Positions 13,402 through 18,723 of a DNA stretch of 64,000 nt are shown here, piece after piece. Numbering within the stretch: position 1 is the stretch's first letter; every line of letters starts with the position of its first letter. Source of the DNA: a candidate division WS6 bacterium GW2011_GWF2_39_15 (GTDB lineage: Bacteria > Patescibacteriota > Dojkabacteria > SC72). The notes below the pieces were generated by a model, which did not search any database, was not told where the DNA came from, and saw nothing but the letters and a program-made list of their open reading frames with translations. Location of the stretch: positions 4,695 to 68,694 of the forward strand of contig LBWK01000001.1 in NCBI GenBank assembly GCA_000993565.1, written 5' to 3'. The position numbers and the translations under genes are program-made.

Positions 13402-13475
13402 TGCCGGATCGTCTAAAGGTAGGACGACTGCCTCTGGAGCAGTTAATCTTGGTTCGAGTCCAGGTCCGGCAACCA
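13402..13475 (+). tRNA. tRNA-Gln (anticodon CTG), CCA encoded
   Basis: Hand-folded cloverleaf. Acceptor TGCCGGA/TCCGGCA, U8, D-stem GTCT/GGAC with a GG-containing loop, anticodon stem ACTGC/GCAGT with loop CTCTGGA, T-arm CTTGG-TTCGAGT-CCAGG, discriminator A then CCA. An extended -10 TGTATAAT lies at 13383-13390. Confidence 0.8.
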
Positions 13476-13479
13476 GCTT

Positions 13480-15828
13480 TTATTCCGCAACAGCCTGTAC
13501 GACAACATCCGCATTTTGCTGTGTTCCGCATGTTGTTGAGGTTGGGGTTGTAAGTCTGAGATCAAACGTTTTTGTCCCAGTTTGTGCGATTCCAGTTCCT
13601 AATGTCTGATATGAGGTTGTGAGTGCTGTCCAGTTTGCCCCCGCGTTAGTAGAAAATTCATGCTTATACTGATCCGTTCCTGTTGTACCCGCTAGTGTCC
13701 ATGGACAGCTGGTGTTTTGCCCTTTAATATTAGCCGTTACATTAACATTCCCAGCGTTAGTAACCGTTTGGGTATCATTTAAATCTCCTGCGGTGGTATT
13801 TTTCGAAGCATTGGCTGAGAGTAGTCCGTAGGCGACGATTCCGTCACTTACAGTTATTGATACTACAATACTTTTTACCCAAACTGCATATTGATACGCA
13901 AAAGTATTTTCGTTTGCCGCGACCTGATTTCCAACGCTGAAACCGGTTGTTAAGATAGATGTTATAGCTCCCGTCTCGGTTGGAGCGTTTCTAAACGGTT
14001 GTGCTGCATCTCCGCTTTGAGCACTTGTTCTGAGTATTGCACCCCGTGCTGTTCCGCCGGTTTCTTTCTTAACCCATATGAAGTCAGGTTGCCATGTTGA
14101 GCTTGTCACATTTTGAGAAGTACCATTCCCAGTATAATTTCCGACAGCAAATTTGTTTCCTGTTTTAAACATGAAATAGAAGAATGTTCTGCCGGCAAAG
14201 TTCACTATACTATTTGTTCCCCTTTGAAACCCATCGGAATTGATTTGCTGTATATAATCGGCACCGGCCGTTAGAGCATTAAAAAAGATCGAGGAATCCC
14301 CAGTTATATTTGAAGTCCTCCAAGCTCCTACATTCCCCCCGTTTCCCTTAACAGCAACCAGATTGGGCTGAATAGGAAGACGGTATATATCACGATTATC
14401 AGTACCATCTCCAATATATGAACCTATTAAAAAGTCGGATGAGCCCCCAGACTTATCTGGTTTCATTGCATTACCAAATGCAGTCCAATAGTAGGTGTCT
14501 CCGGAGGTATTAACTGTTGCATGAGTGCCTACAGTAAAACCGTCAGAGTTTAGTGATGTAATCGCGCCGGCAAAGTTTGAAGCACCGTTGGCAAAGTATC
14601 CGGTAGCATCGCCGATCATTAATGATGTTTTAAAGACAGCATCCTGGTCTGTGGTTTGATCGTTGTGTTTTATAATTACAAGATCAGGTTTATAGCTAAG
14701 AGATGTTACAGAGAGCGATGATCCTGTCCCGGTATATGATCCGTTGTCCATGAGGAAGGTTCCTGTCCCAGCCGTCTTTGTTGATGCTCCACCGAAGGCT
14801 GCGTAGTAATAGGTTGATGCGTTAATATTAGTCTCGTTTGAAGTCCCTATTTGAAATCCTCCTGTGGAAAGTAGCTGCTGTATGTTATTTGGTGCACTAC
14901 CTGTGTCTGTTGAGAAAAAAGATCTGTCGCCATAGTGTTCTGAGATACTATGTACAGCTTGTCTGTTTGTTGTATTTGTTTTGTTTTTCACAAATACATA
15001 GTTTGGTCTGAATGTAAGGCCGGAGTCTATAGAGGTATCTATATCTCGATTATCCGTAGCATTCCCTGTATATGTTCCCACATCCATGGCACCTGAGACT
15101 TCTTTAAAAGCTATAAACCAGAAATTTATACTGTTTTCATTAACTACATTGTTATTTCCCACAGTAAATCCTGATGCATCTAGAGTTTGAATTCTCTGCC
15201 CAGTGCTATCCTCGTTATTGAGCCCGAAGAAATTAGAAGTATTGGTGCCCATAGGGGTAGATTTCCACATCGCAAGACTTGTATTGGAAGATTTAACTAT
15301 GGCAAGATCAGGCTGAAAGCCTGTATTTACAGATTGAGACGTCCCATTCCCAGTATAACTTCCAACACAAAATGTCCCTGACGACGTACAGTCGGAACCT
15401 CCGAATGCAATCCAGAAATACATCACCGCAGAAGTATTTACATCTGCATTTGTCCCAATTGTAAATCCATCGCTGTCAATCGATTGTATTGTATCAGAAG
15501 TTATATCTACATCCTGATCTGCTAACCTTGCCGTTGTTTCCCCTGACATGGCAGAAGTCTTAAACAGTGTTCCATCTACGCCTGCATTGGAGTCATCTTT
15601 AATGAGTATGAGGTCAGGTTGAAAGCCAAGTCCTGTGATAGTTCGGTTATCCGTTCCATCGCCCAAATAGTAACCAGTTTGTATTGAAAAGGTTGCTGCC
15701 TGAACATCCTGCTCAAAGTAGGGGAGAGAGTGTGAAATAATAAAGTATAAAAAATACGTGGTACTTAAAGCCGTAGCAAAATAGGATAAGAGAGTTGCTA
15801 AACTTTTCGATAAAGGACGGTGTGTCAT
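13480..15828 (-). CDS. Large repeat-containing cell-surface protein: N-terminal TM/signal anchor, six ~100-aa internal repeats, C-terminal ~130-aa domain paralogous to the 15969..16478 product
   Basis: Repeats each carry YxGNGT(D/S)NR...GFQPDL(V/I)xIK and (S)DGFTVG...VN...Y(Y/F)WxAFG. C-terminal domain: ITVSDGIVAYG...PWTLAG...ALTTSYQTLGT...GTKTFDL...VVVQAVAE. Confidence 0.7.
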   Translation of the reverse strand: MTHRPLSKSLATLLSYFATALSTTYFLYFIISHSLPYFEQDVQAATFSIQTGYYLGDGTDNRTITGLGFQPDLILIKDDSNAGVDGTLFKTSAMSGETTARLADQDVDITSDTIQSIDSDGFTIGTNADVNTSAVMYFWIAFGGSDCTSSGTFCVGSYTGNGTSQSVNTGFQPDLAIVKSSNTSLAMWKSTPMGTNTSNFFGLNNEDSTGQRIQTLDASGFTVGNNNVVNENSINFWFIAFKEVSGAMDVGTYTGNATDNRDIDTSIDSGLTFRPNYVFVKNKTNTTNRQAVHSISEHYGDRSFFSTDTGSAPNNIQQLLSTGGFQIGTSNETNINASTYYYAAFGGASTKTAGTGTFLMDNGSYTGTGSSLSVTSLSYKPDLVIIKHNDQTTDQDAVFKTSLMIGDATGYFANGASNFAGAITSLNSDGFTVGTHATVNTSGDTYYWTAFGNAMKPDKSGGSSDFLIGSYIGDGTDNRDIYRLPIQPNLVAVKGNGGNVGAWRTSNITGDSSIFFNALTAGADYIQQINSDGFQRGTNSIVNFAGRTFFYFMFKTGNKFAVGNYTGNGTSQNVTSSTWQPDFIWVKKETGGTARGAILRTSAQSGDAAQPFRNAPTETGAITSILTTGFSVGNQVAANENTFAYQYAVWVKSIVVSITVSDGIVAYGLLSANASKNTTAGDLNDTQTVTNAGNVNVTANIKGQNTSCPWTLAGTTGTDQYKHEFSTNAGANWTALTTSYQTLGTGIAQTGTKTFDLRLTTPTSTTCGTQQNADVVVQAVAE

Positions 15829-15968
15829 TTCTACTTCATTGTACTCAGGTATTATTGTATTTGTCTATTCCAATATACAAATATAGACTACAGGATGGGG
15901 CGTATTGTTGACATACTACAGAGGCTCATGTAATGTTTATTAATATTTAATCTTTTGAATATTCTACT

Positions 15969-16478
15969 ATGGGAATAGGTAAAGTACTCACTATTGTAGG
16001 GGTAACTTCATTTGGTTTTCTATTTGGGTTTAAAGTGTTAGCAGCAGATACTGCCACTGTGGCAGCTACTGTAACAGTGCAAAATATCTCCGTTACTGTA
16101 TCAGATGGTACGGTTGCCTATGGTACCCTTGCTGTGAATACAACAAAGTCGACCATTGCAGCGGATTTAAATGATCTCCAAACTGCAACCAATAATGGGA
16201 ATATCACTGAAGATTTTAATATCAGAGGGCAGAACAGCACAGCTTGGACACTTGGAGCCACAGCTGCTGCCGACCAGTATATACATAGGTTCTGTACTGC
16301 CACCTGTGGAACACCTCCTACCAACTACACTGCATTAACAACTTCTTATCAAACGCTGGGGACTGCTGTTGCAACCAGTGGAACGAAAACCTTTGATTTG
16401 CAGATTAATACGCCTACATCATCTTCTTCATTTGCATCACAAGCTGTTGATGTGATTGTACAAGCAGTAGCGAACTAG
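15969..16478 (+). CDS. Small secreted protein paralogous to the C-terminal domain of the 782-aa repeat protein
   Basis: Signal peptide (VLAADT). Then ISVTVSDGTVAYG...AWTLGA...ALTTSYQTLGT...SGTKTFDL...VIVQAVAN, with an identical ALTTSYQTLGT 11-mer shared with the large protein. Confidence 0.7.
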   Translation: MGIGKVLTIVGVTSFGFLFGFKVLAADTATVAATVTVQNISVTVSDGTVAYGTLAVNTTKSTIAADLNDLQTATNNGNITEDFNIRGQNSTAWTLGATAAADQYIHRFCTATCGTPPTNYTALTTSYQTLGTAVATSGTKTFDLQINTPTSSSSFASQAVDVIVQAVAN

Positions 16479-16493
16479 TTTAAAAATAGGAAT

Positions 16494-17108
16494 ATGCAAA
16501 AATACATAAAACTTCTGCTTGTAACTGTAATTCTCCTGAGCATTACAAGCCCGGTCCTTGCAAGTATTGGAGTAGGGGTAGGGACAGGAAAGATAATAGT
16601 CGATGATAAGTTGAAACCGGGTCAGATTTATAGGCTTCCCAGCATTACAGTGCTAAATACCGGGGACGAGGAGGCTGAATATGGGCTGAGTATTGCCTAT
16701 CACGAAAAGCAGCCGGAAAGAAAACCTGCTATGGTATGGTTCAGATTTGACCCTGAAAGGTTTCCACTTAAACCTGGAGAATCTAAAGTAGTATCAATCA
16801 TTCTCGATCTGCCTGTTAATACTAAGCCGGGTGATTATTTCGCATATGTAGAAGCCTCCCCCAAAAAGAAGGCAGTGCAGGGTAATGGTGCTTCTATCGG
16901 GGTAGCAGCTGCTTCAAAATTGTACTTTACAGTAGTACCCGCAAATTTCATCGCGGGTGTATATTATAAACTTCTGTCTTTATGGCAGTTGTATATGCCA
17001 TGGTCCGAGAGGGTCGCTTTTACATTAGCCGTTATTGTTTTGTTTCTGGTTTTTAGAAAGTATTTCAAAATTGAACTTAAGTCCAAAAAATCAAATGTTT
17101 CAAGATAA
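16494..17108 (+). CDS. Secreted beta-sandwich protein with a C-terminal TM anchor (DUF916/DUF11/CARDB-like architecture)
   Basis: Signal peptide, an Ig-like pattern (ITVLNTGDEEAEYGL...PGESKVVSIILDLP...PGDYFAYVEA), then a C-terminal hydrophobic helix and basic tail. Confidence 0.5.
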   Translation: MQKYIKLLLVTVILLSITSPVLASIGVGVGTGKIIVDDKLKPGQIYRLPSITVLNTGDEEAEYGLSIAYHEKQPERKPAMVWFRFDPERFPLKPGESKVVSIILDLPVNTKPGDYFAYVEASPKKKAVQGNGASIGVAAASKLYFTVVPANFIAGVYYKLLSLWQLYMPWSERVAFTLAVIVLFLVFRKYFKIELKSKKSNVSR

Positions 17109-17113
17109 AATGA

Positions 17114-17659
17114 ATGGTTTGGAACTTAGAAAAACAACTTAAAACTGTTTTTTTGGGACTCGGAGTCCTAACCATTGCACTAGCTTCTCTTCCGGTGGTA
17201 AAAACATACGCAGCCCAATCTGATTCTGTTGGTGCAACGGTTAGAATTAGTGTCTGCGGTGATGGAGTAGTTGAATATCCTGAAGAGTGTGAGATACTGC
17301 AAGATGTTGTTAAGTCATGCACGGATTTCGGGTTTAGCTCGGGGAGTGTAAGATGTGATAATAGCTGTGAGTTTGATGTATTGAACTGCTTTACAACTAC
17401 TGTGCCAAACCTGCGACCCGGAGCTGGATTTACACCTTTTTCAACCTCATCATTGCCTAGTTTTCTTATCCCTTTTGATATAAATGGAGATGATGTCATC
17501 AAAGATCAGGAGTTTCTGACACTAATAACGAAATGGGTTGCCGGTTGGAAAATATTTATATTTGACTATACTCCTAGTACAGCTACATCATGTGATCTAG
17601 ATGGGAACCGGGTATGTGATTTAGTAGACTTATCAATATTACTATACTACTCAAAATAA
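17114..17659 (+). CDS. Secreted Cys-rich protein with a C-terminal dockerin-like domain
   Basis: Signal peptide. Cys-rich segment CGDGVVEYPEECE...C...C, resembling Myxococcus-type cysteine-rich repeats. Two EF-hand-like Ca loops, DINGDDVIKDQE and DLDGNRVCDLVD, each followed by a helix (type I dockerin pattern). Confidence 0.5.
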   Translation: MVWNLEKQLKTVFLGLGVLTIALASLPVVKTYAAQSDSVGATVRISVCGDGVVEYPEECEILQDVVKSCTDFGFSSGSVRCDNSCEFDVLNCFTTTVPNLRPGAGFTPFSTSSLPSFLIPFDINGDDVIKDQEFLTLITKWVAGWKIFIFDYTPSTATSCDLDGNRVCDLVDLSILLYYSK

Positions 17660-18723
17660 TGAATGAACTGATAAAATTGAATCCATTGCTGATATTGGTT
17701 AAAGTCCTTTTGTATGTTATCTCATGCTGGGTTTTTATACACTTCTTTGCAATACTCGGAGTCTTTATTCTCGTTGCTTATCCTGTCTGGTGGATGTTTT
17801 TCCCAAAGCAGTCAATATGTTTCTCCTGTAGTACAAGAAAGGATGGAGACTACTGCCCGCTTTGCAAAGATACTGTAGATAGAAAAAATGGAGTAATGCC
17901 TAAATCTTCCCGATCCGTTGCTCTAAACTCCGTGAATGTATTGTTAGTTACTATAATTTCTCTTTCACTTGTATATTTGGAGCACACTTTGCTTGATAGA
18001 TTGGGCTTTTTTGTCGTTGAAACTGATAAAACGGTTTCGTTTGTGATCCCTTCAAAAGGCCAGTACAGGTTAGGGGAAATATTTCCTTTGAAGATAGAGA
18101 TATCTGGAGTTAAGGTTCCCGTAAATGTTGTACAGGCGGATTTAGGGTTTGATTTTGAGAAATTGGAGGTAGTGGAAGTTTCAATACAGGAGTCTTTTGC
18201 AAAGGTCTTTTTACAGAAAGAGATTAATAATGATATCGGATATGTGAGGCTGACGGGAGGTCTCCCAAATCCGGGATTGACTCAGAATAGGGGTATATTA
18301 GGGACAGTATACTTTAAAACTCGGGTAGCAGGACTTGCTCAAGTAAAGTTTCTTCCTACGTCACTTGTTCTTGCCAATGACGGACGGGGAACTAATGTAA
18401 TCAAGGAGTTTCCCGAAATCTCATATTTGGTGTTGCCTGAGAGAATATCTGTTGAGGAGGAAAAGTTACAGGAAGGGCTCATAAAGAAAGATGTTTTAGG
18501 AGCGACAGAAGAGGACGACAAGCTAGTTTTTTTTGATAATAGTTCGAGTGTTCTTGGAGCAAAGGATGAAACAGTAACAAGCGAAAGAACATTACAGGAA
18601 CACTTCAAAGATCATGGGGTCTTCGGCGTAATTTTCTACTACTTGGAGAGATTAGACCATCTTGTTTTAAAGATATATGTAGATGTTTTAGAGAAGCTAA
18701 AAATAAACATTCCGCTTCCTTAG
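17659..18723 (+). CDS. Polytopic membrane protein with a Cys4 zinc-ribbon-like motif and an extracytoplasmic cohesin-like domain
   Basis: 2-3 TM helices; CFSCS...CPLC; then a segment (VSFVIPS...VQADLGFDFEKLEVVEVS...GYVRLTGG...GILGTVYFKTRVAGLAQVKF) matching the cohesin beta-sandwich sequence pattern. Confidence 0.45.
   Translation: MNELIKLNPLLILVKVLLYVISCWVFIHFFAILGVFILVAYPVWWMFFPKQSICFSCSTRKDGDYCPLCKDTVDRKNGVMPKSSRSVALNSVNVLLVTIISLSLVYLEHTLLDRLGFFVVETDKTVSFVIPSKGQYRLGEIFPLKIEISGVKVPVNVVQADLGFDFEKLEVVEVSIQESFAKVFLQKEINNDIGYVRLTGGLPNPGLTQNRGILGTVYFKTRVAGLAQVKFLPTSLVLANDGRGTNVIKEFPEISYLVLPERISVEEEKLQEGLIKKDVLGATEEDDKLVFFDNSSSVLGAKDETVTSERTLQEHFKDHGVFGVIFYYLERLDHLVLKIYVDVLEKLKINIPLP

Follow-up and report, generated by a model that had tools for sequence, protein, structure and literature searches.

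A conserved five-gene cassette of Patescibacteria with a probable role in the surface display of variable adhesins or enzymes

We describe a five-gene cassette that is conserved across the Patescibacteria (CPR), bacteria of ultra-small size. Its most likely function is to present adhesins or enzymes of variable kind at the cell surface, for which it would use a small pilin-like protein (protein A) and a chaperone-like membrane partner (protein B). The remaining genes encode a large cargo protein that ends in a copy of the A domain and two further proteins, C and D, with dockerin-like and cohesin-like domains, respectively. Export or membrane signals are present in all five proteins. In the literature on DUF7483, on CPR cohesins and dockerins, and on Patescibacteria pili and adhesins, no description of this five-gene cassette was found.

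Layout and conservation of the cassette

The window analyzed is a 64-kb stretch of a WS6/Dojkabacteria genome. In it, the cargo protein (782 aa) is encoded on the minus strand (positions 13480 to 15828), and four genes lie on the plus strand, encoding protein A (15969 to 16478; 169 aa), protein B (16494 to 17108; 204 aa), protein C (17114 to 17659; 181 aa), and protein D (17659 to 18723; 354 aa). A first-pass annotation of this DNA had described the cargo, A, and B genes as a three-gene locus ending at 17108. All three open reading frames are present where it had placed them, but the locus extends further, with the conserved, co-directional genes for C and D downstream. The tRNA gene said to abut the locus is tRNA-Gln(CTG) (13402 to 13475, plus strand), with 4 nt separating it from the cargo stop codon. 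Between the cargo gene and the A operon is a divergent intergenic region (15829 to 15968) containing, on consensus match only, a promoter-like site for the cargo gene (15867 to 15838, minus strand; 10/12) and, for the A operon, a perfect TTGACA (15908 to 15913, plus strand) followed by a weak -10 element. The domains of A, B, C, and D have no extra copies elsewhere in the 64-kb window. The open reading frame upstream of the cassette encodes what we take, from reading its translation by eye, to be a glutamyl-tRNA synthetase, and the one downstream presumably encodes a TypA/BipA-type translational GTPase, judged in the same way. The GC content is flat at about 0.40, and this, together with the housekeeping-type flanking genes, makes it unlikely that the cassette is a genomic island.

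Conservation was counted over 48 loci carrying a small A gene, made up of the window itself and related genome and metagenome loci. B was present in 47 of these, a large protein ending in an A domain in 38, C in 38, and D in 34, and the cassette genes are mostly co-directional and adjacent. Three features had been overlooked in that annotation: the phylum-wide spread in Patescibacteria, the cohesin-dockerin gene pair, and an N-terminal extension peculiar to the small protein.

The domain shared by protein A and the cargo protein

In BLASTP, residues 656 to 781 of the cargo protein align with residues 40 to 168 of A, with 74 of 130 positions identical (57%; E = 1e-40), and the two sequences have in common the identical run TALTTSYQTLGT and a W-T-L tripeptide. 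The proposal that A is an end-to-end paralogue of the cargo C-terminus therefore holds as to paralogy but not as to extent, since homology begins at I40 and residues 26 to 39 of A have no counterpart in the cargo protein. The A-domain family comprises 1331 clusters at 50% identity, with carriers in Dojkabacteria, WWE3, Microgenomates, and Parcubacteria. The best 150 of the 1331 clusters represent 74 small and 76 large proteins (228 to 1581 aa), and in all 76 of these large proteins the A domain ends 0 to 4 residues from the C-terminus. Neither A nor B, as single sequences or as profiles, gave a significant match in Pfam, NCBIfam, PHROGs, or PDB sequences, and on this sequence evidence neither the two proteins nor the domain that recurs in the cargo protein appear to belong to a described family.

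The open reading frame, its homologues, an AlphaFold2 (AF2) model (pLDDT 85.7), and fold matches all point to A as a small secreted pilin-like subunit. It begins with a signal peptide recognized by hydropathy (aa 1 to 25; 15969 to 16043), with predicted cleavage between VLA and A; in the family alignment, this region is variable and is followed by a conserved AA. The Ig-like core (aa 40 to 169; 16086 to 16475), delimited by alignment, AF2, and fold matches, contains W93-x-L95, with W93 and L95 invariant in 61/61 family members, and Cys109/Cys113. Chaperone-usher pilins dominate the fold matches listed for the A model, with modest to weak scores. Homologues of A at 60 to 79% identity number 799 and are spread over CPR lineages, a degree of conservation unlike that of most pilins.

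Between the signal peptide and the core lies the N-terminal extension of the mature protein, ADTATVAATVTVQN (aa 26 to 39; 16044 to 16085), a candidate donor strand. The extension is nearly invariant, with the consensus TATVxATVTVQN, and is carried only by the small proteins: identity to the consensus is 59% in small proteins and 9% in large paralogues. Its entropy of 0.78 bits, against 0.95 for the A core, makes it as conserved as the folded core, and in the AF2 monomer it has a pLDDT of about 58 to 61 and no secondary structure. A type IV pilin would have a class III signal peptide (G|F/M-xxxE) and, in the mature protein, a hydrophobic N-terminal helix, whereas in A the signal peptide is of the classical AxA type and leads into a beta-type segment rich in Thr and Val, which argues against such a pilin. 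A sortase pilus can likewise be set aside, because the C-termini of A and of the cargo protein, ...VQAVA(N/E), show neither LPxTG nor a transmembrane (TM) segment, and the cassette has no sortase gene.

The cargo protein (13480 to 15828, minus strand) consists of a leader, six DUF7483 tail-fibre-like repeats, and the C-terminal A-like domain. The leader (aa 1 to 46; 15691 to 15828), assigned from the sequence and a comparison of N-termini, has a basic N-terminus, a long hydrophobic stretch, and a candidate cleavage site between VQA and A; homologous cargo proteins carry a GWP...PPEIQxAxA leader, of which this one is a degenerate version. The tandem repeats, each of about 100 aa in the repeat alignment (aa 47 to 652; 13873 to 15690), form a variable, adhesin-like head, and the protein matches DUF7483 in Pfam (E = 2.1e-34) and the tail fibre family phrog_24898 in PHROGs (E = 1.4e-38). 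The A-like domain (aa 653 to 782; 13483 to 13872), defined by BLASTP, an HMM match running to the last residues, and the alignment boundary, lacks the N-terminal extension of its small paralogue. Heads are swapped between genomes and include DUF7483 tail-fibre-like, Gly_rich_2, ConA-like lectin, chitobiase-C, and S8 protease domains, and such interchangeability matches what would be expected of a generic display module. The tail-fibre-like repeats hint that the cargo and phages have receptor-binding modules in common.

The partner proteins B, C, and D

Protein B (16494 to 17108, plus strand) had been described as a signal-peptide beta-sandwich protein with a C-terminal TM anchor, and this description is confirmed, with a model at pLDDT 86.3. 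The signal peptide is followed by one PapD-like Ig domain (aa 24 to 148), modelled as a beta-sandwich over residues 27 to 147, and then by an amphipathic helix (aa 152 to 167) and a TM helix (aa 171 to 191) with a basic tail. Its best bacterial fold matches are WxLIP and pilus chaperones, and PapD_N is weakly matched in 16 of 55 members of the B family in Pfam.

In alignments, protein C (17114 to 17659, plus strand) shows a signal peptide, a Cys-rich domain (CGDG...C...C, DUF4215-like), and a C-terminal pair of dockerin-like EF loops. Protein D (17659 to 18723, plus strand), as judged by hydropathy and alignments, has three TM segments, of which TM2 and TM3 flank a CxxC...CxxC ribbon, and after these an extracellular cohesin-like domain (aa ~128 to 250). 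The C of the window has no Pfam match of its own at E<=1, and its D reaches E = 0.0035 against Cohesin (PF00963), which falls short of the gathering cut-off. At the level of the families, the profiles point to cohesin and dockerin domains in the two partner proteins: Dockerin_1 (PF00404) is found in 17 of 24 C family members (best E = 2.1e-7), DUF4215 in 6 of 24, and cohesin (PF00963) in 19 of 25 D family members (best E = 3.3e-9). That C and D are encoded side by side and carry dockerin-like and cohesin-like domains implies a non-covalent membrane tether, in which C would pair with D. The cohesin-like domain in D and the dockerin-like Ca-binding loop pair in C resemble those of known cohesin-dockerin pairs, but the cassette contains no carbohydrate-active enzymes, D spans the membrane several times and has a zinc-ribbon loop, and the only other domain of C is the small Cys-rich one.

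Proposed assembly and relation to known surface systems

With modest confidence, we favor the interpretation that the five genes encode a Patescibacteria-specific surface display system, either WxL-like or resembling a pilus without an usher, that is assembled by strand complementation, with B as its anchor or cap. The 14-residue extension of A would add a beta-strand to the cargo A domain and, likewise, to further A subunits, as in the donor-strand complementation of chaperone-usher pili, TasA, and archaeal ABP fibres. The polymerization of A in this way would produce a short stalk or a heteromeric complex that may attach the cell to host cells or substrates. B would be the membrane-proximal partner, binding or capping the last A domain and anchoring the assembly, a role likened to that of WxLIP in WxL clusters or of a tethered pilus chaperone, and the membrane cohesin protein D with the secreted Cys-rich dockerin protein C would supply a second tether downstream. 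Several observations count against this proposal. The AF2 monomer of A already has nine strands, so that an open acceptor groove is not evident, and B has a single Ig domain, compared with two in pilus chaperones and in WxLIP. The cassette encodes no usher, sortase, or dedicated peptidase; an S8 protease is an unusual cargo for a pilus tip and suits a static anchoring platform better; and A is far more strongly conserved than most pilins.

The likeness to chaperone-usher pili, particularly those of the archaic Csu type (pilin CsuA/B, chaperone CsuC, and two-domain tip adhesin CsuE), lies in an Ig-like subunit with an N-terminal extension on the mature protein, in a large protein with a variable head and an extension-less C-terminal pilin-like domain (as in FimH, PapG, and CsuE), and in a PapD-like Ig partner with chaperones among its fold matches. 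The fold matches of A lean toward chaperone-usher pilins but are weak, and its conserved, unstructured extension, confined to the small proteins, is a candidate donor strand. Patescibacteria have no outer membrane, and neither the cassette nor the genes conserved beside it include an outer-membrane usher. The cassette also differs from chaperone-usher systems in having no sequence similarity to them, in a cargo that includes enzymes, and in the architecture of B, which in the model is PapD-like, with one domain anchored by a TM helix, rather than a two-domain periplasmic chaperone.

Donor-strand fibres that form independently of an usher, and without an outer membrane, are known from the TasA-TapA fibres of Bacillus and the archaeal bundling pili AbpA/AbpB; in these, the mature N-terminus of the subunit is the donor strand, and nucleation or anchoring of the fibre has been proposed for the accessory Ig-like proteins TapA and AbpB (PMC9245690, PMC10151520). 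The cassette resembles them in the absence of an usher, in the candidate donor strand at the mature N-terminus, and in the accessory Ig-like protein. A itself is not a TasA/camelysin protein (Peptidase_M73), having no PF12389 match in Pfam or NCBIfam, and the cassettes have no SipW signal peptidase gene. It is conceivable, if doubtful, that the system is a true usher-independent donor-strand pilus, in which A polymerizes through its N-terminal strand, the cargo protein sits at the tip like FimH or PapG, and B acts as chaperone, terminator, and anchor. The cassette would then be the monoderm equivalent of chaperone-usher pili and WxL clusters, to both of which it might be related, and it would represent a main attachment organelle of CPR episymbionts.

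Alternatively, the cassette might be a true but very divergent WxL cluster, with the A domain as a non-covalent peptidoglycan binder, the small and large proteins together making up a static platform on the wall, and B as a one-domain WxLIP. We think this unlikely. The first-pass annotation had likened the locus to WxL/Csc clusters, and as a description of gene organization the likeness stands: as in the clusters of Lactobacillales and Bacillales, a small secreted protein made up of little more than one domain stands beside a large protein, which has variable heads (host-binding in WxL) and closes with the domain of the small protein as its very last part, and beside an Ig-like partner whose C-terminal region forms a TM helix; the best bacterial fold match of B is WxLIP. 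In WxL clusters, WxLIP is predicted to bind the shared domain and complete its sandwich with a strand (PMC10599100), and the complex of WxLIP with a long WxL protein has been solved (9i25), which gives the assembly that we favor a published precedent. Membership of the family, in contrast, found no support. None of the window proteins matched Pfam WxL, DUF916, or DUF3324 at E<=1, and no consistent match to these was seen in 61 A and 55 B family members; of the 49 Pfam families matched by the 61 A members at E<=10, WxL (PF13731) fell outside the 25 most matched. Reference WxL and WxLIP genes were drawn from Enterococcus and Lactiplantibacillus plasmids by tblastn, with a consensus sequence as the seed, and hits were checked by annotation and PF13731. 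Profile-profile comparison with real WxL and WxLIP alignments was not significant, hhalign of the shared domain against 14 real WxL proteins giving a probability of 12.6%, and the fold of the solved WxL domain (9i25_A) was absent among the best fold matches listed for A. A WxL domain has 160 to 190 aa and contains the conserved motif W-x-L twice, the second time within a C-terminal YxxxLTWxLxxxP (PMC9772566), whereas the A domain has about 130 aa, one invariant W-x-L, and a C-terminal VDVxVQAVA without Trp. A WxLIP would have two Ig-like domains in tandem, matching both DUF916 (PF06030) and DUF3324 (PF11797), ahead of its TM helix, where B has one Ig domain. [quoted passage not shown]

Less probable still is the idea that A assembles by itself into a matrix, a sheath, or something like an S-layer (compare TasA and Ena), polymerizing independently of B, C, and D, with the large proteins as decorated variants and gene adjacency reflecting co-regulation of unrelated envelope proteins. 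The co-occurrence of B with small A in 47/48 loci, at spacings of a few bases, argues instead for physical partnership; moreover, TasA-like structures score below chaperone-usher pilins, and, as noted above, neither a Peptidase_M73/TasA match nor a SipW gene was found. That there is no system at all, only a recent local duplication beside its parent among unrelated secreted neighbours, would fit mere adjacency in one window but is refuted by the comparative data, the layout recurring in dozens of genomes of different Patescibacteria classes with heads swapped and the C-terminal domain, A, B, C, and D kept.

Much of the diversity of bacteria belongs to the Patescibacteria, most of which are believed to spend their lives attached to other cells. 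Type IV pili aside, little is known about the machinery by which they attach. Given its wide spread, its unusually conserved core, its swappable adhesin, lectin, and protease heads, and its absence from Pfam and NCBIfam, the cassette is a concrete, testable candidate for the display of host-binding proteins on Patescibacteria cells. The display system that we favor would also link WxL clusters, chaperone-usher pili, and TasA/ABP fibres through a common theme, that of Ig-like domains completed by a strand from a partner.

A conserved five-gene cassette

The first-pass annotation described a three-gene surface locus at 13480-17108, and all three ORFs are present: the 782-aa cargo protein (13480-15828, minus strand), the small secreted protein A (169 aa; 15969-16478, plus strand, divergent from the cargo gene), and B (204 aa; 16494-17108, plus strand), which lies 15 nt downstream of A. 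A tRNA-Gln(CTG) gene at 13402-13475 lies next to the locus, as had been noted. The proposed paralogy between the cargo C terminus and A is confirmed, well beyond chance: residues 656-781 of the cargo protein align with residues 40-168 of A at 57% identity (BLASTP, E = 1e-40), and the alignment contains both the identical run TALTTSYQTLGT and the W-T-L common to the two proteins. In the divergent intergenic region, a candidate promoter (15908-15936) ~32 nt before the A start codon has a perfect -35 (TTGACA), a 17-nt spacer, and a weak -10 (TAATGT); no clear Shine-Dalgarno sequence was seen ahead of A.

The conserved unit runs on past 17108, beyond the three genes first described. Neighborhood comparison showed A and B followed by two more conserved genes in one Dojkabacteria and one Daviesbacteria genome, and these align with 17114-17659 (C) and 17659-18723 (D) of the window. 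C carries a signal peptide, a six-Cys domain, and a dockerin-like C terminus; the six-Cys domain is DUF4215-like in 6 of 24 homologues, and Dockerin_1 is matched in 17 of the 24 (best, 2.1e-7). D combines three TM segments and a CxxC...CxxC loop with an ectodomain that is cohesin-like: cohesin is matched in 19 of 25 homologues (best, 3.3e-9; E = 0.0035 for the window copy).

By exact matches, the window belongs to candidate division WS6 (Dojkabacteria) GW2011_GWF2_39_15. Database homologues of A number 799, with 60-79% identity across Dojkabacteria, WWE3, Daviesbacteria, Minisyncoccales, and others, and those of B number 677, many on the same contigs. We scanned six-frame ORFs of 48 loci containing a small A gene (the window, 2 loci from metagenomes, and 45 from a collection of species-representative genomes) with HMMs for A, B, C, and D. 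B was present in 47 of the 48 loci, C in 38, and D in 34, and a large protein with a terminal A-like domain was found in 38, its gene lying upstream on the same strand in 29, divergent as in the window in 4, and downstream in 5. Judged by gene content, the five genes form a cassette that is conserved throughout the Patescibacteria. GC content is flat across the window and the flanking genes are presumably housekeeping genes, by the look of their translations alone, which argues that the cassette is core genome and not an island. A domain scan of the 64-kb window found no further copies of the A, B, C, or D domains.

Two Parcubacteria-type comparison loci encode a tandem B-B fusion of 350 aa (L008:8483-9532) and two adjacent B genes (L015:8494-9735), respectively; both have longer C proteins (330-540 aa), conserved in the Cys-rich N terminus only, and different or multiple cohesin proteins with Big_13 domains. 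The third-party MAG records L006, L008, L009, L010, L017, L021, L028, L033, L037, and L051, which also carry the cassette, are titled Saccharibacteria, Gammaproteobacteria, Pseudomonadales, or Bdellovibrionales; the cassette and its neighbors make these taxon labels look unreliable.

Small and large forms of the A domain

Run with HMMER against 1.84 billion cluster representatives, the A profile matched 1331 clusters at E <= 1e-3, of which 796 also pass E <= 1e-10. The best 150 comprise 74 small proteins (signal peptide plus domain) and 76 large ones of 228-1581 aa; in every large protein, 0-4 residues follow the domain. The paralogy had been called end-to-end, but homology between small and large forms begins exactly at (I/V)SV(S/T)V-xDG. 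Ahead of this point, directly after the AxA signal-peptidase site, small A proteins carry an extension, xTATVxATVTVQN, where large proteins have unrelated sequence. Identity to the consensus is 59% in small versus 9% in large proteins over the extension and 61% versus 53% over the 13 positions that follow it, and in the family alignment the extension equals the folded core in conservation (entropy, 0.78 versus 0.95 bits). Two cysteines at a spacing of four residues are invariant in the small A proteins (FCTATC; Cys109/Cys113, window 16293-16307), whereas the large paralogues have cysteines before W-x-L (SCPWTL; GGGCTWTL elsewhere) and near the C terminus (TTCG, SSCYG), located in the window cargo protein at 13696-13698 and 13501-13503 (minus strand); given this placement, the disulfides probably differ between the two forms.

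As modeled by AlphaFold2 (mean pLDDT, 85.7), A is a beta-sandwich from residue 42, with residues 27-41 lacking secondary structure in the monomer (pLDDT, ~58-61). Foldseek returned no match to this model at E <= 1e-3; the top ranks were mostly chaperone-usher pilins (FimA/F/G, PapE, PapA, CfaB, and CsuA/B), PapE matching with a probability of 0.98 and a TM of 0.49 by target. The signal peptide, beta-sandwich, and C-terminal TM segment described for B were seen in model and hydropathy. In the model (pLDDT, 86.3) the signal peptide is followed by one beta-sandwich, with a low-confidence loop (129-133) just ahead of its last, invariant strand, and then by two helices, the first amphipathic and the second TM, and a basic tail. 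Weak PapD_N, fn3_5, and NPCBM_assoc matches recur in 16-34 of 55 B family members. The cassette components have familiar folds.

Interchangeable cargo heads

The head of the window cargo protein consists of six ~100-aa repeats (13873-15690, minus strand) whose Pfam match is DUF7483 (E = 2e-34). Among the PHROGs, the repeats match a phage tail-fibre family (E = 1.4e-38) and a virion structural protein family (E = 1.6e-25), which suggests that phages and CPR surface proteins have receptor-binding modules in common. The C-terminal A domain is retained in other genomes under different heads; these include a glycine-rich domain, a ConA-like lectin accompanied by DUF2341, chitobiase-C with Fn3_assoc modules, an entire S8 subtilase including its prodomain, and many sequences that lack annotation. 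The subtilase, with a fervidolysin-type prodomain, makes up the A-ended protein in three Patescibacteria loci (L041:8548-10911, L042:7289-9247, and L046:1997-3874), where the genes run in the order A, large protein, B, and neither C nor D was found in the vicinity.

Cassette cargo proteins of many genomes have a distinctive N-terminal leader: a hydrophobic helix ending (F/W)xF(S/T)GWP, ~12 residues, and PPEIQxAxA just ahead of the mature protein (L013:6502-6600, L016:4876-5010, L026:6905-7030, L049:4873-4990, L035:3748-3860, and others). The window copy (15691-15828, minus strand) is degenerate, and the leader occurs in no other ORF of the window. It may serve as a signal dedicated to sorting or processing.

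Assembly and relation to known systems

These observations support a system for surface display, with the A domain as its assembly module: an export or membrane signal is present in every cassette component, cargo proteins with interchangeable heads always end in the A domain, and the TM-anchored, PapD-like B accompanies A almost always. The conserved, exported, unstructured N-terminal strand on small A, missing from the large paralogue, is the same arrangement as in donor-strand systems. FimA and PapA carry a donor strand, and FimH and PapG are without one. TasA and AbpA have an N-terminal donor strand (PMC9245690, PMC10151520). In the mechanism that we consider most likely, the extension of A would pair as a beta-strand with the cargo A domain, and perhaps with further A subunits; B would bind or cap the membrane-proximal A domain via its last hairpin, and C would dock on D. 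Such a role for B would parallel both pilin capping by PapD-like chaperones and the binding of WxL by WxLIP (PMC10599100; complex 9i25).

The assembly would be either a multi-subunit A stalk, favored by the extension, by the likeness of the A fold to pilins, and by the extremely high conservation of A, or a 1:1:1 platform, favored by the protease cargo and by the A monomer, which is already a full sandwich as modeled. The most novel interpretation, which we hold to be less likely than not, is a donor-strand pilus that does without an usher and has a chaperone or anchor tethered to the membrane.

The WxL/Csc likeness proposed in the first-pass annotation holds in how the system works, where the analogy with WxL clusters is good, but not in family membership. 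Pfam WxL, DUF916, and DUF3324 gave no matches to the window proteins at E <= 1 and no consistent matches across the A and B family members scanned, and the A domain is shorter than the WxL domain, with only one W-x-L motif. Against real WxL and WxLIP proteins retrieved as a comparison set, the A-domain profile gave a collinear, non-significant alignment including the first WxL motif (hhalign probability, 12.6%), and B scored 0.6% against a WxLIP in profile comparison. The fold matches listed for A include chaperone-usher pilins but lack the solved WxL domain (9i25_A). On these grounds membership of A and B in the WxL families is not supported. Beside the small WxL and DUF916-DUF3324 proteins, the WxL control cluster on Enterococcus faecalis plasmid pMP8-1 (L053:773-7954) encodes a 1410-aa InlB B-repeat protein and an SpaA-type isopeptide pilin-related protein. 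A chaperone-usher pilus was rejected, there being no usher and the chaperone-like B being one-domain and membrane-anchored, and the TasA operon, sortase pilus, and type IV pilus were each rejected in membership tests.

A search of the accessible literature found no published description of the cassette. Overall, it is a real, widespread, undescribed surface system of the Patescibacteria, whose logic draws on both WxL clusters and donor-strand pili and adds a predicted cohesin-dockerin tether.
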